This document shows, in pieces, positions 778 to 29,878 of a stretch of 29,878 nt of DNA. Made by a program: the position numbers and the translations under genes. This stretch comes from Candidatus Thorarchaeota archaeon (GTDB taxonomy: Archaea; Asgardarchaeota; Thorarchaeia; Thorarchaeales; Thorarchaeaceae), in the NCBI GenBank assembly GCA_011364905.1, contig RDNZ01000034.1, forward strand, positions 1 through 29,878, given 5' to 3'. How positions within the stretch are numbered: position 1 is the stretch's first letter; each line of letters starts with the position of its first letter. The notes below the pieces were generated by a model, which was not told the DNA's origin, searched no databases, and saw only the letters and a program-made list of their open reading frames with translations.

Positions 778-915
778 TGGTGCGTCCGCCGGGATTCGAA
801 CCCGGGCCGGATCCGTTCTACGGCTCCGAGGGATAAACCCCCGCACTGTGGCAGGGATCCATCATAGCCCCTTAGTCAGGACCTCAGAAATTGAAGCCCT
901 ATAGACAACGGACGC
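778..915 (-). tRNA. tRNA-Gly(GCC) with two introns (D-arm 14/15 at 872..901; canonical 37/38 at 816..848)
   Basis: Reverse complement: acceptor GCGTCCG/CGGACGC-A-CCA, T arm CCGGG-TTCGAAT-CCCGG, anticodon arm GATCC-CT GCC A^C-GGATC. Removing the 30-nt and 33-nt inserts gives a 75-nt cloverleaf. Confidence 0.92.
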
Positions 916-1033
916 ATTTCTTTGAAGCACTGACAACGAGCGCTTCGAAACACACCGCGATAGTGAGCGTTAAAAAGCTTACCAAGGGTATGAGGTAAAA
1001 CTCATTTCATACAAGATAAGATGGAGTTGTGTT

Positions 1034-2116
1034 GTGCTGTCAGAACCGGTTGTTAGCAATAGACTGGAATGGATAGACAACGCAAGAGGCATTGGGATAC
1101 TTACCGTAGTCTTGGTTCATTCGATGATTCCGATGCGCGACAATGCATACCTCTGGGGGGCTGTTTCACTTCTAGGTGGCTTTGCCATTGCTCTGTTTTT
1201 CATCATGGCAGGACTGACATATAATGGTGATAAGTATCGGAACAATCTCAAAGACTATGCCATCTCTCGCGGTCGGCAACTCTTGATTCCATATGTCGCC
1301 TTATACATCATCATGATGATCCTATTTGTCCCTCTCGCTCCTTTTGTTCAGACCAATCTGGCACCTAGTGAGGTCTTCTTCTGGTTCCTTTACGGAGCCG
1401 GGCCGCCCGGTGAAGCCACCTACCTTTGGTTCCTTCCCGTTCTCTATTTTGGCTTGCTTTTCTTCGTTGTAATAGAGAGAGTGACACATTCAATGAATTC
1501 AGTTGTACGATGGCCACTCGTGATCTTACTTCCAGTTCTAGCATTCTGGATTACAGATGCCTTCTCTCCGATGCTTGTCCCTTGGCGTGTGAACAGTGTC
1601 CTCATTGCAACTGCATTTTGTATCATAGGCTATGAGATACGAAACTACAGACATCTACGACCTTGGCGAACGAAATCGAAAGTGTTTGATTTCGTCGTCT
1701 TCATAGCTCTCTCGGCAGTCCTCTTCGTCGCCTCTCAGTACAATGGTTTCTTCGATTTTGTCGAAGACAGTTTTGGTAAGAATGCTTGGCTCTATCTCAT
1801 AACTGGCACCTCTGGCACGATAATGGTATTCATGTTGTCAAGTCTGTTCAAGAATAAAGGGATCCAGTTTCTTGGCGTGAACTCCCAAGTGATCTATGAG
1901 ATACATCCAGTTTTCTTCTATCTTGCGCCAGCATTGATGCTTCTGCTTGGATGGTCGCTTGCGGCCTATGATGCCTCTATCACTCTGTTCTGGCCGCTAA
2001 AGTTTCTACTTGGAATTGGACTTTCAATACCTTTTGCCATGCTCGTCCTGAGAAACAGAGTTCTATCACTGATCTTCACGGGAAAGCCCATTGCACAAGA
2101 TCATGCTCTATTATAG
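1034..2116 (+). CDS. Acyltransferase family 3 (OafA/YrhL-like) multi-pass membrane O-acyltransferase
   Basis: N-terminal R-x-x-W-I-D-x-A-R-G-I-G-I...V-H motif; ALFFIMAG, LLIPY and LWFLPVL motifs; about 10 hydrophobic segments. Confidence 0.85.
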   Translation: MLSEPVVSNRLEWIDNARGIGILTVVLVHSMIPMRDNAYLWGAVSLLGGFAIALFFIMAGLTYNGDKYRNNLKDYAISRGRQLLIPYVALYIIMMILFVPLAPFVQTNLAPSEVFFWFLYGAGPPGEATYLWFLPVLYFGLLFFVVIERVTHSMNSVVRWPLVILLPVLAFWITDAFSPMLVPWRVNSVLIATAFCIIGYEIRNYRHLRPWRTKSKVFDFVVFIALSAVLFVASQYNGFFDFVEDSFGKNAWLYLITGTSGTIMVFMLSSLFKNKGIQFLGVNSQVIYEIHPVFFYLAPALMLLLGWSLAAYDASITLFWPLKFLLGIGLSIPFAMLVLRNRVLSLIFTGKPIAQDHALL

Positions 2117-6714: not shown

Positions 6715-6756
6715 TGGTGAGCTGGACGTGATTTGAACACGTGACCACCGCACTGT
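6715..6756 (-). repeat. Duplicated 3' half of tRNA-Val(GAC), from the anticodon loop to CCA (att-like)
   Basis: tggtgagctggacgtgatttgaacacgtgaccaccgcactgt is 40/42 identical to 8652-8693. Confidence 0.95.
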
Positions 6757-6848
6757 TAACTAGTTTTCATCTTGCATATCTTTGAGATTCAGACGAATTC
6801 ATATATTTTTTATATCCGATTTTCCATCAAATTTCTGAGGGTCTAGTT

Positions 6849-7610
6849 ATGTCACGTGCTGGAGCAAGTTTGTGTGTCGAGGGTTTTGGTAAAATAGTGA
6901 ACATACTAGTAGCATTCGTTGCTGTCTTTTGGTTGCTATTGAAAGCAATCATACAGATGGATGCTTGGCTTCTCGCTCCCTATGATGTTCCTGTTTCAGT
7001 TCTATTTACAGGATTTCTAATACTAGCCTCTGCAAAAGTCATGGAAAAAAAATCTACCCTTTTTTCTATTGTTATGATCGCTATAGGGATTATTATGCAA
7101 GGAGTTGTAATATTCTATGGTCTTTCTTCTACAAGTTTCATTAATGCTGCAGTTCTGGAACCATTCTTTGTAGCGATCTATATCTATTGGTCAGTCATTC
7201 TTGGTCACAACATAGCGAAATCTAGTGGAATTAGTGAATCATCAACTCCAATGGAGCGACTTCCACCATTTGTGTTAGCAGTAATAGGCGCAGTGGGCTT
7301 GTACATCAATCTTCCCTACCTTGTATCAGCATACTTCGTTCCTAGTTATCCTCCATATACTATTCCTGTTGCAAGTCTGCTGACATCACTTATTCTCATT
7401 GGCGCTAGTATGATGTCGCTTCGTTCTCATTCGATTTACTGGATTCTATTCTTCATGGGACTTGGAATCTCTATTGCACCGTATTTTCTGCCTGCAGTTC
7501 TCTCAATGCCATACTACGGCCTGATTTGGTTCGTCGGAGATATCATGTACAAGTTCTTTGGAGTAGCTGCAGTTGCCTATGTTACTCCACCACCAAAATA
7601 CTCGGGGTAG
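6849..7610 (+). CDS. Multi-pass membrane protein (cassette gene between tRNA-Val repeats)
   Basis: 253 aa, about 8 hydrophobic segments; visibly AT-richer than the core genes. Confidence 0.75.
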   Translation: MSRAGASLCVEGFGKIVNILVAFVAVFWLLLKAIIQMDAWLLAPYDVPVSVLFTGFLILASAKVMEKKSTLFSIVMIAIGIIMQGVVIFYGLSSTSFINAAVLEPFFVAIYIYWSVILGHNIAKSSGISESSTPMERLPPFVLAVIGAVGLYINLPYLVSAYFVPSYPPYTIPVASLLTSLILIGASMMSLRSHSIYWILFFMGLGISIAPYFLPAVLSMPYYGLIWFVGDIMYKFFGVAAVAYVTPPPKYSG

Positions 7611-7658
7611 GATGAAACGATGGTTCGTGGAAAGGATATCTCCGGACGTTGAAGTAAG

Positions 7659-7679
7659 TGGTGAGCCGGACGTGATTTG
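7659..7679 (-). repeat. Duplicated 3' end of tRNA-Val(GAC), from the T-loop to CCA
   Basis: tggtgagccggacgtgatttg is 20/21 identical to 8652-8672. Confidence 0.9.
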
Positions 7680-7746
7680 CTGGTTGTATGCTGCGATGTA
7701 GTCCAAGAATCAGTATGTAATGAATGCCACATGGATGACTTTTGCC

Positions 7747-8544
7747 TCACTTCACACCCAAGGCGAACAGAACAGATTTCCTAAATGTCACTCCCTTCTC
7801 CTCTGTCAAGTGTTTTCCCAATGTGTCTAAAGCGGTTTGATATAGTTCATCTAAGCCGGGGCGCTCATCAATGGGTATAGATTCAATGGTATATTGCCAA
7901 CCATAATTCATCATTTGGTGCCACCAATCATGAACCGAAGGATAAACGTAATCGAGATCAAATGTAATGATATCACAGCTGCTAAACTCTGCGTTGGACA
8001 TAATCACATCCCATCCTGCTCTTGTTTCCTTTGAATATCCCACAGGCGCTGAGGGAAGATATGGTTGAACAAGTTTCATAATCCATTCTGAGTCTTCCTG
8101 GAATAACCACGTACTGATTCCCACTTTTCCCCCAGCCCTAAGAACGCGCAGGATTTCGCTCATCACAAGATCTTGATATTTGTATTCATTCTTCTCAAAA
8201 TCGTAACGACGTCCCCAACCTATGAATCCACTCACTATATAATCGAAACTTGCATCGTTAAAGGACATCTCTTCGGCACTCATGACTTGAACTGAAGCAT
8301 TGGAAATACCACACCGTTTAAGCTCAGCAGTAATGTTTTCAACACTCTTCTCCCTTTTGTCTATTCCAGTCACTTGGCCTGTTTTTCCTACTTTCTCCAG
8401 TGCAGGAAACAGCGTGGAGCCTCCCCCAGTTCCAACATCCAATACGTGAGAACCTTTCCTGATCTCGAGCATGTCTACAAGACGATTGCCTAAGACATCC
8501 CAGTAATAGCCCCATGTTGTGGGCTTGTTTCTCAATGGCATCAT
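7747..8544 (-). CDS. Class I SAM-dependent methyltransferase (UbiE/Methyltransf_11-like), cassette gene
   Basis: VLDVGTGGG motif I, VTGID, SFNDASFDYIV, EILRVLRAGG. Confidence 0.88.
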   Translation of the reverse strand: MMPLRNKPTTWGYYWDVLGNRLVDMLEIRKGSHVLDVGTGGGSTLFPALEKVGKTGQVTGIDKREKSVENITAELKRCGISNASVQVMSAEEMSFNDASFDYIVSGFIGWGRRYDFEKNEYKYQDLVMSEILRVLRAGGKVGISTWLFQEDSEWIMKLVQPYLPSAPVGYSKETRAGWDVIMSNAEFSSCDIITFDLDYVYPSVHDWWHQMMNYGWQYTIESIPIDERPGLDELYQTALDTLGKHLTEEKGVTFRKSVLFALGVK

Positions 8545-8651
8545 AGATAACCATCAAAAAGAGCGGCTAGGAGTTCGATAATAGCATTATGAACAAAGCA
8601 GAATATATTCACACCTGCTTTGATTGAATTACTTGCATCCAAATGAGAAAG

Positions 8652-8729
8652 TGGTGGGCCGGACGTGATTTGAACACGTGACCACCGCACTGTCAATGCG
8701 GTATCATAGCCGGGCTAGACCACCGGCCC
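8652..8729 (-). tRNA. tRNA-Val(GAC)
   Basis: Reverse complement GGGCCGG-TG-GTCTAGCCCGGCTATGAT-A-CCGCA TT GAC AG TGCGG-TGGTC-ACGTG TTCAAAT CACGT-CCGGCCC-A-CCA. Confidence 0.97.
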
Positions 8730-23197: not shown

Positions 23198-23917
23198 TCA
23201 TTCAAAATCAGTGTCGAATGATTGGTCACCAGACCCATACGTAGCTATTTCCTGAGCAAGGGCGTTAACAATTCGATTCAATTGTTCAGGTGTGTATTTC
23301 TTACTGACTGTAACTATCTTTGTTTCCTCCAAAAGAAGAAAATAGAGGACTCCTCTTCCTGTGTAGTATGTATCCTTATCAACTGGAATTGTGAATTCAT
23401 CTTCTCTTCTTGCAACCTTAATGTCGCCAACAGGATGTGTGTATTCCCATCTCCATATCGCTCTGGGGAGTTGGACTTTTTTGTCAAAAGATCTCTCAGA
23501 TTGGAAAAACGCAACAAAAAGGAGTGCATTGGATCCCCATTGAATGATGATGTACACCGGATCCTTGTTCAGAACCGCTAGTTTCCCCTCAACAAATGGC
23601 TCTGGGGGAGCGATTTGATTTAGGACATCCATTCCACGAAACAGCATAGAGCTTCCTATTTTGTAGTACGTAACAATTACGAAACCGACAATTCCAATTC
23701 CGCTAAGTGCAATGAACAAGGTCGTGATAGCACTCACAGGTAGAGAATACTGTAAGAAGAACGTTGAGATTGGTAGAAGTGGAAGTGCAACACACATTAA
23801 GATGCCAATGATCAGTTTCCCTCTTATGGATGCTCGAACCTCCTCTTTCGCATCCGACTCCGAATTGCTTTGAAAATCTTCCACAGTAAATCCCAACTGA
23901 TATGGAAAACTAGTCAT
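23198..23917 (-). CDS. Hypothetical membrane protein (2 TM plus soluble domain)
   Basis: 239-aa ORF. Confidence 0.65.
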   Translation of the reverse strand: MTSFPYQLGFTVEDFQSNSESDAKEEVRASIRGKLIIGILMCVALPLLPISTFFLQYSLPVSAITTLFIALSGIGIVGFVIVTYYKIGSSMLFRGMDVLNQIAPPEPFVEGKLAVLNKDPVYIIIQWGSNALLFVAFFQSERSFDKKVQLPRAIWRWEYTHPVGDIKVARREDEFTIPVDKDTYYTGRGVLYFLLLEETKIVTVSKKYTPEQLNRIVNALAQEIATYGSGDQSFDTDFE

Positions 23918-24001
23918 GAGATGAGATAAGGTTTGGTGGAAAATCGTAAGCTAAGTGCTACTTGAGTTAAGCTATCACCATGCCTAACTGATGTCAACTA
24001 C

Positions 24002-25027
24002 TTAGACTGAAGTCAACAGGTCTGCCACATCAAATGAAAGAATCCACATCTTTCTATGAACCTTGAATCCCATTCGCTGATTGATTGAAAGCATAGGTGC
24101 ATTTGCATTAGCATTTCCAGCTTCTATTACCCGGGCTCTCGGATACTTCATCATTGCATAGGTCAACATCTCCGCCTTTAGCCACTTGCCCAATCCACGT
24201 CCTCTGTATTGGTCTCTGACCCCTGTCAGACCCTGTTCAATTAGATGCCACGCCTCTGGCTGATACCAAATCTCGGTCAATCCACTAATTACACCATCAG
24301 GTTCCTTGCTGATCATAGTACTCCAGACTTCCCCCTGTGATTGGAAGTATTTTTCCATCTTTCTTCGGCTTTCAGGTGTGACAATCATTTCTGGTGCTAC
24401 GTCCTCAAGAGGAGCTTGATTCCACATCTCTGTATACAACTTACAGTATTCCTCAAGTTCTTGATCGGGAACTGAACTGAAAATCTCAATCCTCACTCCA
24501 GAGGCCTTTTTCTGGCCCTCCTCTCGCCAACGAGCAACCATCTGCAAGTCTACCTCAGAGAGCACAAGTCGATTTATCACCCGACTACTGACAATTCCAC
24601 ATCCTAAGGACGCAAAGAATGAGTATTGATGTTCAGCTCTCGTTTCGACAACCAGCTTCTGCTTTCCAATCTGCTCTGCTTTTCTCGCCAAGTATCCCAG
24701 AAACTCAGTTTGGGTTTCTTTAGTAGTGAACTCCTCTTCCAGAATCAAGTCCGCATAAGCTGTTTCCTTTTCACCCTCATAATTCGGTGCGCTTTCCCTT
24801 GCCCACCATACCCCTCCCATTCCAACCACTTCCCCTGAGTCAGAATCTGCTCGCCACCATGATAATTCATAATCAGGGTGTGGGGATAACATATAGGACC
24901 GTCGTCGCTTGTGCGAAGGTGATGGATCATCTGGAGCGAGTTGAGAGTAAACTCTGTCCCGCGAGTCGAAGTATTTCTTCCAGTCTTCCTCGGTCAGTTC
25001 TGAAGGTTTGAACTCTACGAATTGCAT
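24002..25027 (-). CDS. Tandem-domain GNAT N-acetyltransferase
   Basis: TGVRDQYRGRGLGKWLK (acetyl-CoA motif A), NANANAPMLSINQRMGF; ATG at 25027 preferred. Confidence 0.9.
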   Translation of the reverse strand: MQFVEFKPSELTEEDWKKYFDSRDRVYSQLAPDDPSPSHKRRRSYMLSPHPDYELSWWRADSDSGEVVGMGGVWWARESAPNYEGEKETAYADLILEEEFTTKETQTEFLGYLARKAEQIGKQKLVVETRAEHQYSFFASLGCGIVSSRVINRLVLSEVDLQMVARWREEGQKKASGVRIEIFSSVPDQELEEYCKLYTEMWNQAPLEDVAPEMIVTPESRRKMEKYFQSQGEVWSTMISKEPDGVISGLTEIWYQPEAWHLIEQGLTGVRDQYRGRGLGKWLKAEMLTYAMMKYPRARVIEAGNANANAPMLSINQRMGFKVHRKMWILSFDVADLLTSV

Positions 25028-25133
25028 TCTGGGGAAGAATGGTCTAATGTCAATGGAAAAAAATACCGCTTTCAGCAAGATCTGTATCTATTGGCTCTCC
25101 TTTGGGTCCACTTTTCATGTCGCACGAGTTGAA

Positions 25134-25157
25134 TGGTGGACCGGGTGAAATTCAGAC
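25134..25157 (-). repeat. tRNA-Ala 3'-end repeat R6
   Basis: tggtggaccgggtgaaattcagac, 19/24 identical to 29663-29686. Confidence 0.85.
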
Positions 25158-25259
25158 TCGCAATGATTTCTAGCAGAGTGGCCCAAGAAACGTTTGAACG
25201 GATGATTATTAACCAACTTCTGAGATTGAACTCCGGTTGGTTAGGTACAAGGGGCTGTC

Positions 25260-26750
25260 TTGATGAAACGAAACGGACTGCTTGTAGTTACATCTGTTGT
25301 AATCTTGGGTTTGCTGGCTTCTATCTTGTATCTTGCTTCACAAGGATTCTGGAATGGGACAACCGATTCTTCACCTGATATTATCATTCACAATGGGGAA
25401 ATCATCACTATGGAGCAGTCGCCTGCACAAGTCGAAGCGCTAGCAATCAAAGGTGAGTATATTGTCGCTGTAGGCAATGAGAATGATGTCCTCGCATTGG
25501 CGGGACCAAATACTCAACTCATCAATCTTGAAGGAGGGGCACTTCTACCCGGTTTTATTGATGCTCATGCTCATCATATAGGTGACCGAAGTTATGTGAA
25601 CCAATCATCGTCAGAGGAAGTGATTGAATCAGTACTAAGCTCTGGGTGGACCAGTATTTCTGAACTTTTTGTGAATCCAGAACGCTTGGATGGGCTCATG
25701 TCTTTAGATCAACAGGACAAGCTTCGCGTTCGTGTAAACGCTTACCTCACATTGAGCTGGCAGTTTGATAGGTTCGGCGATTGGTATAAGGAATATCAAC
25801 CCAGGCATGAGTACAGTTCGAAGTTAAGGATTGGAGGAGTGAAGATCTTCATGGATAGCTGGTATACCGACTGGACTCACTACTTCAACCAAACCGAGCT
25901 GGATTCATTGGTGCAACAAGCTCATGAAGAGGGATTTCAGATAGCCATTCATAGTGTGACCGATAACGCAACAGATATTGTTCTAAACGCTCTGGAATCT
26001 GCATTGGACGGGCAATCGAACCAGCTTTATCGTCATCGAATCGAGCATCTTGTCCTCCTCAGAAACGACCAGATACAGAGGATTGCTGACCTAGGAATCA
26101 TAGCTTCTTTTCAACTGACATGGATTAACTCAGACTGGGAACAAGCAGTGTCATGGCCAGTCTTGCAGAACTACCCAGATCTCACAGGAAGATGGAGAGA
26201 TATTCTTGAAGCTGGCATACCCTCACAAGGAAGTACCGATTTTCCATGGCTTCTTGGAACAATAGAGAGATCAGCAATGTATGCAGTTTCTAGTGCTGTC
26301 ACAAGAGTAGGAGGAATGGGGCTTCCACCCACAGATTGGATGTTGAATCAGACTCTCAGTGTCGAACAGGCTTTGCGTCTGATTACAATTGACGCAGCCT
26401 ATGGCACTTTTCAAGAGGATGTAAAGGGGAGCATTAAGGTAGGAAAACTCGCTGACCTAGTCGTTCTTTCAGACAATCCACTCACAGTTCCAGAAAACAC
26501 TCTTGCAAACATAGAGGTACTGATGACGATGGTTGGAGGGGTTGTAGAGTACACAACTCCCGGCCAGCAGTTTTTATCTGCAGAGTTGTTGCTGGCTACT
26601 AATCAAAGAGTTGAATGCTTGAGTCAAATGCCCAAGATGGAAATGATAGATCCATCTAATCAAAAGAAAGGAGTGGTGGACCGGGCGAGATTAGATTCCT
26701 TAGACCATTTAGAAATGAAGTGCAATGAGCCCAACTTCAGTAACAGATAA
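25260..26750 (+). CDS. Amidohydrolase family 3 (YtcJ-like) with N-terminal membrane anchor; cassette gene
   Basis: PGFIDAHAH, GVKIFMD, QIAIHS, RHRIEH, GSTDFP, GSIKVGKLADLVVL; the C-terminal tail reads through repeat R5. Confidence 0.9.
   Translation: MMKRNGLLVVTSVVILGLLASILYLASQGFWNGTTDSSPDIIIHNGEIITMEQSPAQVEALAIKGEYIVAVGNENDVLALAGPNTQLINLEGGALLPGFIDAHAHHIGDRSYVNQSSSEEVIESVLSSGWTSISELFVNPERLDGLMSLDQQDKLRVRVNAYLTLSWQFDRFGDWYKEYQPRHEYSSKLRIGGVKIFMDSWYTDWTHYFNQTELDSLVQQAHEEGFQIAIHSVTDNATDIVLNALESALDGQSNQLYRHRIEHLVLLRNDQIQRIADLGIIASFQLTWINSDWEQAVSWPVLQNYPDLTGRWRDILEAGIPSQGSTDFPWLLGTIERSAMYAVSSAVTRVGGMGLPPTDWMLNQTLSVEQALRLITIDAAYGTFQEDVKGSIKVGKLADLVVLSDNPLTVPENTLANIEVLMTMVGGVVEYTTPGQQFLSAELLLATNQRVECLSQMPKMEMIDPSNQKKGVVDRARLDSLDHLEMKCNEPNFSNR
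26674..26697 (-). repeat. tRNA-Ala 3'-end repeat R5
   Basis: tggtggaccgggcgagattagatt, 20/24. Confidence 0.9.
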
Positions 26751-27104
26751 TCCAATCACAAAACTGACGTGGATTGATAGGACTAAGTTCTCGACCAGCC
26801 TTGGAGGTGATACGAGCGCCAATTCAAGTAGAATGGCCATAATCATTACTATGAGAGGTCTAAACAAAGGATCTACTTTTCCTTCATAAAGTCGCACAGC
26901 ATAATAGAATTCCAGAACTGCAACCGAGATTCCAAAACCAATTGCTCCAAACGGTCCTGCCATGGTAATATCAGGACCATGATCAACTACCCAACTAGTA
27001 TGCAAGTATTTGAAATGCATCACTAATGGAATTGGAGTTATCAATATGCCTCTGGCACAGTGGATAAGTGGCAGCAATCTGGACTCAGCGTCGGTTTGAG
27101 TCAC
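26709..27104 (-). CDS. Small four-TM membrane protein, H-x-A-R family paralog A; cassette gene
   Basis: IHCAR, AGPFG, IHVSFVIGLS.TE; similar to 27830..28225. Confidence 0.75.
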   Translation of the reverse strand: MTQTDAESRLLPLIHCARGILITPIPLVMHFKYLHTSWVVDHGPDITMAGPFGAIGFGISVAVLEFYYAVRLYEGKVDPLFRPLIVMIMAILLELALVSPPRLVENLVLSIHVSFVIGLSVTEVGLIALHF

Positions 27105-27170
27105 TACTGAACCTCATAAATTCGATAATGAAATTCATAGGGGCCAATCAATCTATATCTTTTGGAAAAA

Positions 27171-27193
27171 TGCTGGCCGGACGAAATCCGAAC
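27171..27193 (-). repeat. tRNA 3'-end repeat R4 (degenerate)
   Basis: tgctgg-ccggacgaaatccgaac, 18/24 with one gap; preceded by an A-run like the other repeats. Confidence 0.7.
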
Positions 27194-27267
27194 TCCCGTC
27201 TTCGAAGAGATTTTATTGGTATCTATGAACTCCTTTGATAACAACGCACTCAGGTTGATGAATATCG

Positions 27268-27768
27268 GTGCAACTAGATCCTCAGACCTTCTCAATTGTT
27301 ATCGCAGCCTCAAGCGTCATTATTGGTGTCATTTTCAGCGTTGCTTCTATCCTCATGTCGACTAGAAATGCAGCCAAGTCAAGACAAGCTTCAATCTTTC
27401 TGGAATTCCTCAGTGTCGTTTCAGAGAAGGAATTCTTTGGTGATTTTCAGCAGATTCTTGGAAAATGGGAGTGGGAGGACGCAAAAGATTTCGCCTCCAA
27501 ATATGGACCAGTAACAAATCCAACGGATTACAACACATTTGTCAGAATCGTGACACAATTCGATAGCATGGGGACTCTGGTCCGAAACAAGTTGACTGAC
27601 ATTTTGTTCATGCCCAGAGGAATCGCTATTATGGTCACAAGTTTCTGGGAACGATTCAAACCAATCGCCTCTGACCTGGAGGTGATATGGGGAAATGCTG
27701 ATGTCTTTGGTGAGATCGAATATCTCTACAATGAGATAAAGAAGGCTCGTGTGTCTGTGGTAAAGTAG
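27268..27768 (+). CDS. N-terminal TM protein, DUF4760-like; cassette gene
   Basis: QTFSIVIAASSVIIGV TM, then RQASIF, FDSMGTLV, FWERFKP, IEYLYNE; family call is from memory. Confidence 0.7.
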   Translation: MQLDPQTFSIVIAASSVIIGVIFSVASILMSTRNAAKSRQASIFLEFLSVVSEKEFFGDFQQILGKWEWEDAKDFASKYGPVTNPTDYNTFVRIVTQFDSMGTLVRNKLTDILFMPRGIAIMVTSFWERFKPIASDLEVIWGNADVFGEIEYLYNEIKKARVSVVK

Positions 27769-27789
27769 TGGACCAGGCTTGATTTGAGC
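27766..27789 (-). repeat. tRNA-Ala 3'-end repeat R3
   Basis: tagtggaccaggcttgatttgagc, 19/24; its first 3 nt are the stop codon of the adjacent gene. Confidence 0.85.
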
Positions 27790-27829
27790 TCACTGAAGAC
27801 GATATAGCTGACAACCAATAATCATTAGT

Positions 27830-28225
27830 TTAAGGACTATCTTGTGTATATTCGATTGCTAGCAATACAGCTTCCACAGCAGAGAGTCCAATTACAAAGC
27901 TTACATGAATTCCGAGAATCAATCCATCAATAGATCTCAAAGAGCCTGCAAAAGTAAGTTCAATCAGAACGGCTAAAACCATCAAACAAAAGGGAATACG
28001 CAGATCATCCATCTTTTCTTCGACTAGTTGTTTGCCGAAGATGCCCTCTAGAAGTGCGACTAAAACTATCAGACCGTATGGGCCAGCCCGAATTACTACA
28101 ACCATGTCCCACGGGAATTGAGATAATATGTAGGACTGCCTAACCTCCAAGGCAATTATTAGTGAGAGGACCAACACGGTCCTTGCCGCGTGAATGACTC
28201 CCAGATTCCTCTGTATCTTAGTCAA
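27830..28225 (-). CDS. Small four-TM membrane protein, H-x-A-R family paralog B; cassette gene
   Basis: IHAAR, AGPYG, IHVSFVIGLS.VE; GAGGGA SD before TTG. Confidence 0.75.
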   Translation of the reverse strand: MTKIQRNLGVIHAARTVLVLSLIIALEVRQSYILSQFPWDMVVVIRAGPYGLIVLVALLEGIFGKQLVEEKMDDLRIPFCLMVLAVLIELTFAGSLRSIDGLILGIHVSFVIGLSAVEAVLLAIEYTQDSP

Positions 28226-28304
28226 ATCAATCCCTCACAAACCAACCTGATACTAGTAGACTGGATGCCTATTAATCAAACTCAACAAGCAATCAGAAAA
28301 GAAA

Positions 28305-28326
28305 TGGTGGATCGGGCGTGATTTGA
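28305..28326 (-). repeat. tRNA-Ala 3'-end repeat R2
   Basis: tggtggatcgggcgtgatttga, 20/22. Confidence 0.92.
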
Positions 28327-28818
28327 CTATGAAAAATCGGAGATAGCCTGATTTCTCCCCAGTCCTTTGGCCAATAGCCCCATTTCTAATGTCCCAAGTA
28401 GAGATACTCCCAGTATCAAAAGGACCTTTGCTAAAACAGGCACGGTAGCTGGAATATCTAATCCATACACAAACAGAATATTATCTGTGATAAGCAGAAG
28501 GATAACTTGAGATACTAATTGACCTAGCGTCGGAAGTACATATCCGCCTAGTGTTTTCCAGTGTTTTTGGAGTACATACACATCAAGTCCAATCAACACA
28601 ACTGCAGGGACAATAAAGACGAACGGATATGAGACTAGTGACGGATATGGTCCCCCAGGACTGTTAAAGACATCAAAACGGTACTTTTCGTAGTTGACAT
28701 GTAGTATGAGTGGAAAGGAAGTGAAAACTGTCACTCTTGCCAGATGTAATAGTCTAACCAATATTGGTCTGTTCGAGTGTTCACCTACTTTCTCTTGATA
28801 TAAGCCATTTGACAGCAC
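28327..28818 (-). CDS. Four-TM membrane protein, distant H-x-A-R family paralog C; cassette gene
   Basis: LHLAR...PLILHVNY, GGPYP, LEMGLLA align with paralog A (IHCAR...PLVMHFKY, AGPFG, TEVGLIA); start may be GTG about 27 nt downstream. Confidence 0.7.
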   Translation of the reverse strand: MLSNGLYQEKVGEHSNRPILVRLLHLARVTVFTSFPLILHVNYEKYRFDVFNSPGGPYPSLVSYPFVFIVPAVVLIGLDVYVLQKHWKTLGGYVLPTLGQLVSQVILLLITDNILFVYGLDIPATVPVLAKVLLILGVSLLGTLEMGLLAKGLGRNQAISDFS

Positions 28819-28881
28819 CTGAGTTACCCTCTTAGAGATATTCTAAATGAGCTTAGAAAATGTTTCTTACGCAAGAAGAAG

Positions 28882-28905
28882 TGGTGGACCGGGCGTGATT
28901 CGAAC
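28882..28905 (-). repeat. tRNA-Ala 3'-end repeat R1
   Basis: tggtggaccgggcgtgattcgaac, 24/24 identical to the tRNA. Confidence 0.97.
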
Positions 28906-28953
28906 TATGACATTGATAGAATATGTTAATATGCCCTCATTCGAAAGTATCAC

Positions 28954-29652
28954 TTGGAGTTTCGGGAATTGGTGTTCAATCAATCCACAAAGAGAATCGT
29001 GGGAATTGCTACTGCACTTGTTTTGGTAGGAATTATTATTGTTGGGTTCTCCATTGCATTGAACCCTCCTACCAGCAACATACCAGATCCACCCTTTCTT
29101 TATTCCAGCTTGAATGACCTATTCAGATACCGCAATGACACTCTAGGTGGTGCTGTGACTAACTACCTAGAATTCGAACTTTCATTTAGTAATTTTCAAG
29201 ATGGGAGTGCCTTCCTGAGATTGGCCCGTGCCATAATCACAGTATGGGTGGCCGATGTAACAACTCATCAACCCGACGCCACTTTGATGCAATATGATCC
29301 ATCTAGTTCATTGATTTCCTGTAATCCACCAAGACCCCGGTATCAGTTATTCTTCAGTGACAACAATGCTACTGATGGAGAATGGTCCGCTACTGGAACC
29401 TGTACAGTGATTCTGGGAACAACTGAGTTGCTCGAGAGTAACTCAATTGTTGTTTACTATGGTTTTATGATGAGTAATAATCTAGCAAGAGAATTGGATG
29501 GACATCAGTTCCTTGTCAAGATTCAGGCTGACATCACATACAATGCATTCTACTTGGGAGGAATATTAAATTTTCATTATCAGGATGCGACCTACAATTG
29601 GACATTGGGTGAAGATGTGCCTATCTACATGCTGCCTGCTGATTCAACATGA
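28954..29652 (+). CDS. Single-TM exported hypothetical protein; tRNA-proximal cassette gene
   Basis: N-terminal TM, beta-rich domain with N-x-S/T sequons; stop lies 10 bp from the tRNA CCA end. Confidence 0.7.
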   Translation: MEFRELVFNQSTKRIVGIATALVLVGIIIVGFSIALNPPTSNIPDPPFLYSSLNDLFRYRNDTLGGAVTNYLEFELSFSNFQDGSAFLRLARAIITVWVADVTTHQPDATLMQYDPSSSLISCNPPRPRYQLFFSDNNATDGEWSATGTCTVILGTTELLESNSIVVYYGFMMSNNLARELDGHQFLVKIQADITYNAFYLGGILNFHYQDATYNWTLGEDVPIYMLPADST

Positions 29653-29662
29653 ACCAAAAAAG

Positions 29663-29739
29663 TGGTGGACCGGGCGTGATTCGAACACGCGACCTCTTCC
29701 ATGCCAAGGAAGCGATCTACCGGGCTGATCTACCGGCCC
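29663..29739 (-). tRNA. tRNA-Ala(GGC)
   Basis: Reverse complement GGGCCGG-TA-GATCAGCCCGGTAGATC-G-CTTCC TT GGC AT GGAAG-AGGTC-GCGTG TTCGAAT CACGC-CCGGTCC-A-CCA, with the G3:U70 alanine identity pair. Confidence 0.98.
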
Positions 29740-29878
29740 ATGCTTGTGGTTCGCAGTCTTTGCTGGAACGGTTAAAAGAATTGTGGAGTAGAATCTTCTA
29801 TGTCCTCTCGATATCTCCAGTGTTTGTCTTGATGTTCCTGCCTTACGTATAAGTTAGCTCTTCTCCTAGAGCTTGCCC

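Follow-up and report, generated by a model that had tools for sequence, protein, structure and literature searches.

Gene-cassette arrays bounded by copies of a tRNA-Ala(GGC) 3′ end in Thorarchaeota lack a recognizable integrase

The stretch of DNA considered here (hereafter, the window) comprises positions 1 to 29,878 of contig RDNZ01000034.1 in the assembly GCA_011364905.1 of a Candidatus Thorarchaeota archaeon (C31:1-29878; host genome of 3.08 Mb in 95 contigs, 45% G+C, estimated to be 81% complete). Downstream of the 3′ end of an intact tRNA-Ala(GGC) gene, it carries an array of small genes separated by six copies of that same 3′ end, five ungapped and one gapped, all co-oriented with the tRNA (Table 1). 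A repeat search recovered a single family, with members at 25134, 26674, 27766, 28305 and 28882 and the tRNA-Ala gene itself. Counted from the tRNA, the copies are spaced by 781, 577, 539, 595, 497 and 1540 bp, and each interval holds one open reading frame (ORF), the orientations from the tRNA outward being +, -, -, +, -, +. The first-pass annotation of this DNA, made from the sequence alone, had described the locus as an integron-like array of single-gene cassettes; its copy coordinates, spacings, gene content and orientations were reproduced upon recomputation, and so were its repeat scores, except that the copy at 28305 matches the tRNA at 20 of 24 rather than 20 of 22 positions. Its statement that all six ORFs encode membrane or exported proteins also agrees with the translations, each of which contains an N-terminal or multiple hydrophobic segments; units 2, 4 and 5 are small multi-pass proteins.

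Shuffled sequences gave no match to the tRNA 3′ end at three or fewer mismatches (100 shuffles). The copy at 27171, strongly decayed and alignable only with a gap, is real: in a related strain (L067), the copy at the orthologous junction is perfect. The most distal copy is old and vertically inherited, since a related population (L093:1767) has it in an equally decayed form, with changes in common. The contig is a scaffold, with seven Ns after base 29878. The order of the units, though, is not an assembly artefact, because an independent Logan contig from another sequencing run is 100% identical to window positions 26465-28667 (2203 nt) and spans four copies, and contigs from two further runs span the copies at 27171, 27766, 28305 and 28882.

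Table 1. The tRNA-Ala(GGC) array and its flank in the window (aa, amino acids; copies are scored against the 24 nt at the tRNA 3′ end)
Feature	Position	Strand	Description	Basis
tRNA-Ala(GGC)	29663..29739	-	Array anchor; intact, intronless, CCA encoded	ARAGORN; Rfam RF00005, 63.4 bits
Unit 6, adjoins tRNA	28954..29652	+	232 aa, N-terminal membrane anchor, no Pfam family	
Copy 1 of tRNA 3′ end	28882..28905	-	24/24; ~9 pyrimidine-rich bases at lower coordinates belong to the conserved block	
Unit 5	28327..28818	-	163-aa multi-pass membrane protein, no family; cluster 12	
Copy 2	28305..28328	-	20/24 (4 mismatches); overlaps the stop codon of unit 5	
Unit 4	27830..28225	-	131-aa membrane protein, no family; paralogue of unit 2 (36% aa)	
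Copy 3	27766..27789	-	19/24 (5 mismatches); a TGG-to-TAG change is the stop codon of unit 3	
Unit 3	27268..27768	+	DUF4760 protein, N-terminal membrane segment	Pfam PF15956, E 6e-8
Copy 4	27171..27194	-	~18/24 with one gap (about 6 mismatches); strongly decayed	Reading of the sequence
Unit 2	26709..27104	-	131-aa membrane protein, no family	
Copy 5	26674..26697	-	20/24 (4 mismatches)	
Unit 1	25260..26750	+	Membrane-anchored amidohydrolase	Pfam Amidohydro_3, E 3e-49
Copy 6, most distal	25134..25157	-	19/24 (5 mismatches)	
GNAT acetyltransferase, array flank	24002..25078	-	Colinear with the related population	Pfam

When 94 short copies are aligned on their core, the information content stays at background from -40 to -2, rises at the first retained base of the T-loop (position 0) and remains high through the CCA (22 nt); after the CCA, about nine pyrimidine-rich bases are moderately conserved before the profile falls to background again. 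The conserved block therefore measures ~31 bp, that is, 22 nt of the tRNA from T-loop to CCA followed by ~9 trailer bases, and its 5′ edge is uniform across the 94 copies, even in those with species-specific T-stem variants. The pyrimidine-rich tail may represent the terminator of the archaeal tRNA gene, which each unit would have had to supply while it lay beside the working tRNA. Neither an arm-type motif nor inverted ends surround the block in the 94-copy profile. Stretches of 84 nt around the copies, of which six were folded on the tRNA strand and four of these on the other strand too, fold no better than shuffled sequences (z from -1.5 to +1.4), revealing no attC-like hairpin, and a two-arm, dif-like dyad was found neither on reading the 22-nt core nor, as excess self-pairing, on folding.

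The units behave as discrete modules. For instance, a unit of ~555 bp encoding a protein of ~145 aa (cluster 0) is found in seven species, at varied ranks and among unrelated neighbours. In pairwise nucleotide comparisons of this unit, for which 400 nt of flank were available on each side, homology starts 1-6 nt before the proximal block in full-length pairs, reaches further out in no pair, and stops at most 11 nt from the end of the distal block; one such pair is 87.5% identical over 586 nt (-2 to 0). Homologues of units 1, 5 and 6 likewise occupy other array positions in other species. Those of unit 6 lie in the arrays of two other species (L030:2362-3060, 71.6% aa identity, and L046:6810-7496, a member of the same cluster 8), the homologue of unit 5 is the first unit behind the tRNA-Ala of another species (L027), and the pairing of the amidohydrolase of unit 1 with a copy is kept in at least six other Thorarchaeota genomes. 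An exact look-up of the unit 6 protein in public assemblies returned no record.

Comparison of close relatives reveals turnover by whole units. A related population (~92% identity), whose gene order was derived from ENA and Logan assemblies, carries ORF1, a counterpart of ORF4 (ORF4′, 79% nt identity), ORF3 (92%), three other units and the tRNA. It is colinear with window positions 23368-26690 at 93.9% identity, and the colinearity stops inside the copy at 26674..26697. Unit 2 has no match in the contigs of this population; runs X5 and X9 also lack coverage of it (bin 26734-26996), missing coverage alone not being used as evidence. The product of unit 3 is 98% identical in the related population, where both of its flanking copies are perfect and both of its neighbours are different. 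L067 has perfect blocks on both sides of ORF3 and the window has strongly decayed ones, although the gene itself differs in only 21 of 166 codons; the junctions around it must therefore have formed independently. Furthermore, the order of ORF3 and ORF4 is reversed in two related populations, and a joint that goes back from 28323 to 27198 is present in Logan contigs of two independent studies. Closer pairs show the same pattern: L067 and L073 share 98.6% identity as far as a block, within which 4 of 22 positions differ, and are unrelated past it; at the place where L067 has a single 292-bp unit beside the tRNA, L093 has units of 287 and 801 bp. Overall, strains that are 96-99% identical differ by whole units, with breakpoints within a copy.

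These comparisons show modular, integrase-less cassettes exchanged at tRNA-end copies, confirm the original observation of discrete, mostly one-gene units bounded by tRNA 3′ ends, and lend partial support to the interpretation attached to it. Gain, loss and reordering with breakpoints at the copies had been predicted and were found; none of the outcomes named in advance as damaging to the idea, namely, a fixed order, breakpoints away from the repeats, eroded islands and mis-assembly, was encountered. By contrast, the proposal that units are added at the tRNA only, newest first, does not hold strictly. Across 12 arrays, which are not independent of each other, the mismatch of copies to the resident tRNA rises only weakly with their rank from the tRNA (rho 0.30), and several arrays have perfect copies at interior ranks and a degenerate first copy; the swapped order of ORF3 and ORF4 points the same way. 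Given the weak decay gradient and the perfect interior copies, insertion at internal blocks, reshuffling or conversion must also occur.

The cargo is diverse and functional. The 132 cassette ORFs fall into 83 clusters, 60 of which are singletons, and 75 ORFs are co-oriented with the tRNA, compared to 57 in the opposite orientation. About 37 cassette ORFs were scanned against Pfam and proved to encode diverse accessory proteins, including flavin oxidoreductases, a DNA methylase, an S-adenosylmethionine (SAM) methyltransferase, beta-helix and LVIVD surface proteins, a beta-lactamase-fold hydrolase, a solute-binding protein, a STAND NTPase, an aldehyde:ferredoxin oxidoreductase, an acyl-CoA synthetase, a GH4 glycosidase and an MFS transporter, with no recombinases among them. 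Relative to the ~92% identical population, ORF3 shows 17 synonymous and 4 nonsynonymous codon differences and ORF1 shows 75 and 43, respectively; this predominance of synonymous differences indicates that the cargo is functional and under purifying selection. The frame of ORF1 crosses copy 5 into the next unit, and therefore the last ~25 codons of the amidohydrolase derive from the block and the current neighbour, and conservation among its homologues ends near residue 470.

On the distal side, a further boundary might lie near 23944, which would make the GNAT gene a seventh unit; it is indicated by two weak joints with short sides of 20-27 nt and by a 7-nt TGGTGGA at 23935, while the related population is colinear past 23944 at 93.9% and an apparent deletion in L066 is a scaffold gap. 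An extra unit of 228 aa beside the tRNA in one strain variant (L093:5748-6434) shares 69% nucleotide identity over 314 nt with the gene at window positions 23198-23917. Because this relative is a unit beside the tRNA, the gene family that flanks the window array beyond the GNAT gene is itself cassette cargo.

Arrays of this kind are widespread in the lineage. Extra Ala-type 3′ ends are present in all 28 genomes of the genus, many of them as arrays with a spacing of 0.3-3 kb and a maximum of nine copies in 8.9 kb. Across 29 loci, the 90 copy-to-copy intervals have a median length of 967 bp, and 62 of them contain a single ORF of at least 60 aa. Among 151 sampled Asgard genomes, the 27 that belong to this family (14 genera) have a median of seven Ala-type ends, whereas other families mostly have 0-3. 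Arrays are also present in chromosome-level metagenome-assembled genomes (MAGs) of Thorarchaeota.

The tRNA-Ala(GGC) gene is not the only anchor. In the host genome, orphan ends also lie behind tRNA-Val, tRNA-Cys and tRNA-Leu, and every orphan end near its tRNA is downstream and on the same strand. The window itself holds a second, smaller array (6715-8729), in which tRNA-Val(GAC) (8652-8729, minus strand) is followed by two co-oriented 3′-end copies, one at 7659, which begins in the T-loop, and one at 6715, which has at least 40 nt in common with the tRNA; its units encode a SAM-dependent methyltransferase (7747-8544) and a 253-aa protein of no family. On another contig, seven co-oriented tRNA-like 3′ ends with the consensus end CCTGGCCCGCCA and a T-rich tail are spaced by 224-1277 bp (C8 22680-27090; L078:2680-7090), and no intact tRNA was called close by. 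On a third (C24 5753-10966; L076), the sequence just after the 3′ end of the 16S rRNA is repeated downstream and delimits small units. Paralogues of the DUF4760 gene of unit 3 are found in one of these 16S-trailer units (C24:7906-8241) and beside a tRNA-Ser-like end (C55 14253-14760). Finally, two tRNA-Cys(GCA) genes were called 3.3 kb apart, with a 3′ fragment in between (C25 58653-62037); the distal one is a displaced near-full-length copy, because its 5′ acceptor strand no longer pairs with the 3′ strand.

The tRNA-Ala gene has further peculiarities. Past the Ns that follow the window (C31 29879-30203), the first 51 nt of tRNA-Ala(GGC) are present again, with a promoter region that resembles the original without matching it exactly, and the related population has a promoter and a 21-nt 5′ fragment 4.4 kb upstream of the working tRNA (L067:8576-8647). 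The 5′ side of the gene, too, is therefore a point of recombination. In Thorarchaeota, tRNA-Ala(GGC) often contains up to three introns, which interrupt the D-loop after base 20/21, the anticodon loop and the boundary of T-stem and T-loop at position 53/54; examples include genes with three introns (L030:6674-6841, L031:2139-2306 and L048:11388-11553) and with two (L026:52-187, L038:5424-5563 and L067:3981-4122). To within one base, the cassette block has its 5′ edge at this 53/54 position. ARAGORN misses or mislabels the intron-bearing tRNA-Ala genes and, with introns allowed, reports tRNAs with introns of 400-1300 nt, such as a tRNA-Thr at window positions 778-1276. At least two of the long-intron calls, one in L027 (6629-7968) and one in L040 (838-2209), terminate on a copied tRNA-Ala 3′ end and are probably 5′-like stretches joined to a displaced 3′ fragment.

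We searched for the responsible enzyme in the host genome, the 28 genomes of the genus and three more Thorarchaeota MAGs, two of them at chromosome level. In the host genome (81% complete), there is no match to tyrosine recombinases (PF00589), SSV-type integrases (PF16795; SSV, Sulfolobus spindle-shaped virus), serine recombinases (PF00239) or Cas1 (PF01867), and these families are detected in 9, 0, 9 and 1 of the 28 genus genomes, respectively. Of the two chromosome-level MAGs, one is free of PF00589 matches, and in the other the only match lies far away from the array. The arrays do not contain integrase remnants either: tblastn with the ORFs of recombinase loci matched only methyltransferases, leucine-rich repeat proteins and similar cargo, and no split SSV-type integrase ORFs abut the copies. 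Conversely, no tRNA or tRNA-like end was found within up to 10 kb of ten tyrosine-recombinase genes. The first-pass annotation had suggested a genome-wide search for tRNA ends and a search for a recombinase tracking the arrays. The former yielded 22 orphan matches, compared to 6-7 with shuffled queries, as well as the arrays on further anchors; the latter failed, and known integrases were rejected as the motor, since the presence of no family tracks the arrays. A virus using the block as its attP was rejected as well, there being no exact match among the IMG/VR viral contigs, the one collection searched. Overall, the units are discrete and modular, end at blocks, vary in content and order, carry functional cargo and include no recombinase.

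A separate observation from this search is that no Phage_integrase-family protein, and hence no XerA-type dimer resolvase, was detected in 19 of the 28 genus genomes or in the chromosome-level MAG CP070761.1. Such an absence is uncommon among archaea, and it prompts one to ask by what means chromosome dimers are resolved.

We interpret the locus as an array of gene cassettes for which the tRNA-Ala(GGC) 3′ end serves as the anchor and whose units are moved by a trans-acting activity that present family models miss, and assign to this reading a probability of about one half. A unit consists of one gene, sometimes two or three, plus the ~31-bp block, and units would enter, leave and relocate by recombination between two blocks, the partner being either the tRNA gene's own block or any displaced copy. 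Insertion would be a Campbell-type integration of a small circle, and excision, as the reverse reaction, would regenerate the circle; the tRNA would stay whole throughout, with a displaced copy left behind each unit and old copies decaying. The trans-acting recombinase could be encoded by the host or by an unbinned element and would act on the short block. The Campbell-type scheme follows from the anatomy of the arrays and from the strain comparisons, whereas the circular intermediate and an activity in trans outside the recognized families are inferred. A more general version, in which Thorarchaeota capture and shuffle genes as small circular cassettes with stable-RNA-gene ends by means of an undescribed activity unrelated to IntI, Xer, serine recombinases and Cas1, is advanced more tentatively.

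Several observations weigh against an unrecognized dedicated enzyme. No circle junction, excision product or enzyme was seen, the sequencing runs having been available as contigs, in which rare forms cannot show. The MAG is 81% complete and mobile elements often remain unbinned, so that a known integrase may act in trans. A single genome uses several anchors (tRNA-Val, tRNA-Cys, tRNA-Leu, the C8 tRNA-like end and the 16S trailer), and the duplicated piece of tRNA ranges from 22 nt to 40 nt or more, or takes in almost the entire gene. In the two junction comparisons that were informative, the exchange falls on opposite edges of the block, one junction pair suggesting the T-loop side and the closest strain pair the trailer side. 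Two variants of the locus are 96% identical in the array and 83% identical upstream of the tRNA, and the age gradient along the arrays is weak.

Much of this could be explained if no dedicated machinery existed and RadA-type homologous recombination acted on DNA that the cells acquire from relatives. Stable-RNA genes, whose ends are the best-conserved short sequences, would then provide portable homology for the single-crossover insertion of circularized fragments and for the swapping of array segments between lineages. Such a mechanism would accommodate the use of unrelated anchors in one genome (four tRNAs, the C8 tRNA-like end and the 16S trailer), the occurrence of the DUF4760 family in the tRNA-Ala array, in the 16S-trailer array and beside a tRNA-Ser-like end, the variable length of the duplicated pieces, the promoter-bearing 5′ fragments upstream of tRNA-Ala, the different exchange points at the two readable junctions, the mosaic divergence on the two sides of the tRNA and the failure of integrase families to track the arrays. 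However, in the organisms in which homologous recombination has been measured, Thorarchaeota not being among them, 22-31 bp is very little for it to work efficiently, yet turnover is seen between strains that are 96-99% identical. Nor would homologous recombination account for the uniform 5′ edge of the block in 94 copies or for the first attachment of a block to a new gene, and the excess of copies is confined to one Asgard family, although all Asgard archaea have RadA and conserved tRNAs. We consider this explanation possible but rather unlikely: the shortness of the block, its uniform 5′ edge and the turnover among close strains favour an unrecognized recombinase over plain homologous recombination, as does the restriction of excess copies to one family.

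The remaining explanations are considerably less probable. According to Williams (2002), as cited in PMC9897764, tyrosine-integrase elements are classically recognized by their integration between the T-loop and the 3′ end and by the 3′ fragment that they displace; in Prochlorococcus islands, successive integrations push older elements outward and leave partial tRNAs behind (bioRxiv 10.1101/2020.12.28.424599), and some genomes of the genus do encode tyrosine or serine recombinases. Each unit could be what erosion has left of a larger virus, plasmid or island that bore an integrase and had entered the tRNA, as in tandem genomic islands and the remnants of tycheposons. This improbable account is already largely refuted by the single ORF in 62 of the 90 intervals, with little spare DNA, by the recurrence of the ~555-bp unit with the same two ends in seven species, by the lack of integrase fragments in the arrays (tblastn) and the purifying selection on the cargo, by the position of the ten tyrosine-recombinase loci of the genus away from tRNAs and by the absence of the block from IMG/VR viral contigs. 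Local tandem duplication and unequal crossing-over from a few ancestral units, with no horizontal input, would fit the paralogy of units 2 and 4 and the distant similarity of the N-terminus of unit 5, but is very improbable in view of the mutually unrelated remaining units, the many clusters and singletons among the cassette ORFs and the homologous units at other positions in other species. Least probable of all is that assembly or scaffolding joined pieces of several strains at a short repeat, as might be suspected from the Ns right after the window, the second tRNA 5′ part beyond them and the many contigs of relatives that end at the tRNA. Five of the six copies are diverged, the sole exact repeat, of 27 nt, is below usual assembly k-mers, contigs from other runs span the junctions not covered by the identical Logan contig, and chromosome-level MAGs show the same architecture.

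Asgard archaea have large, fluid accessory genomes, and how they acquire genes is poorly understood. The arrays amount to one-gene modules exchanged, in one Thorarchaeota family, at short copies of RNA-gene ends without a recognizable integrase. If a dedicated enzyme is involved, site-specific recombination would gain a new class, and the principle of the cassette array would have been invented a second time, independently. Under the more general version above, the system would be a functional counterpart of the integron evolved independently in the archaeal lineage related to eukaryotes. If, instead, general recombination is responsible, a conserved sequence of 22-31 bp would suffice to organize a pan-genome. 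Either way, the arrays offer a concrete, testable route of gene flow in relatives of the eukaryotic ancestor. They also set a trap for automatic annotation, as cassette boundaries account for many of the 'partial tRNAs' and of the spurious long-intron tRNA calls in these MAGs.

Published papers on Asgard mobile elements report integrase-bearing elements and aloposons at tRNA genes rather than cassette arrays, and a survey of archaeal tRNA gene fragments describes insertions of 9-23 kb. A literature search found no description of such arrays in Asgard archaea or Thorarchaeota, in agreement with the suggestion that the architecture is new. Among the known systems, CRISPR adaptation and casposons resemble the arrays in polarized growth beside a 'leader' and in the duplication of a ~30-bp repeat with each insertion, and some casposons target tRNA 3′ ends. 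However, Cas1 is found in one of the 28 genus genomes and not in the host, the units have no terminal inverted repeats, and the inserts are genes of 0.3-4.7 kb rather than spacers. SSV-type integration differs as well, since SSV-family integrases (PF16795) are found in 0 of the 28 genomes and the copies are not associated with split integrase ORFs.

Xer-dependent modules, such as IMEX (integrative mobile elements exploiting Xer) at dif and the pdif modules of Acinetobacter plasmids, are small, integrase-less, often one-gene units bounded by short sites and moved in trans by the host recombinase, and their successive integrations can accumulate at one chromosomal site. The arrays share with them the small integrase-less modules between copies of a short site. 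Unlike the Xer sites, however, the array site does not consist of two inverted arms around a 6-8 bp spacer, the blocks are direct repeats rather than alternating inverted sites, and a XerA-type recombinase is undetected in the host genome and in 19 of the 28 genus genomes.

Tandem tRNA islands, tycheposons and archaeal integrative elements resemble the arrays in their overall layout, with an intact tRNA at one end, co-oriented displaced 3′ copies starting from the T-loop that serve as direct repeats, and the reuse of one tRNA to build an island of accessory genes in which variation is concentrated beside the tRNA (bioRxiv 10.1101/2020.12.28.424599, PMC9897764, PMC8371274). Known tRNA-associated elements range from several kb to more than 100 kb, carry a tyrosine or serine recombinase and often replication genes, and partial tRNAs without an element are read as remnants. 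By contrast, the array units have a median length of 967 bp, mostly contain one intact gene, have ends conserved across species and carry neither an integrase nor its remnant, and most genomes of the genus have no detectable integrase. Judged by Islander-type criteria, the arrays have the intact tRNA and the displaced co-oriented 3′ fragment but neither an integrase in the element nor a multi-kb size with mobility genes.

In behaviour, the arrays work like integrons, including sedentary chromosomal arrays and CALINs (clusters of attC sites lacking integron integrases), with which they share small, mostly one-gene cassettes of very diverse accessory cargo, recombination sites between cassettes, one fixed platform per array and the cassette as the unit of gain, loss and reshuffling. 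Both are strain-variable, with breakpoints at the recombination sites. The analogy drawn in the first-pass annotation thus applies to behaviour only, because the defining integron features are absent: there is no adjacent IntI-type gene, the site, instead of a hairpin attC, is 22-31 bp copied from a tRNA end and shows neither hairpin nor dyad, the genes face both ways instead of forming co-oriented promoterless cassettes, and an essential RNA gene, rebuilt with each event, serves as the platform. Taken together, the locus combines accretion anchored on a tRNA, as in tandem tRNA islands, with a cassette array, as in integrons, and the recombination system behind it has a substantial chance of being new.

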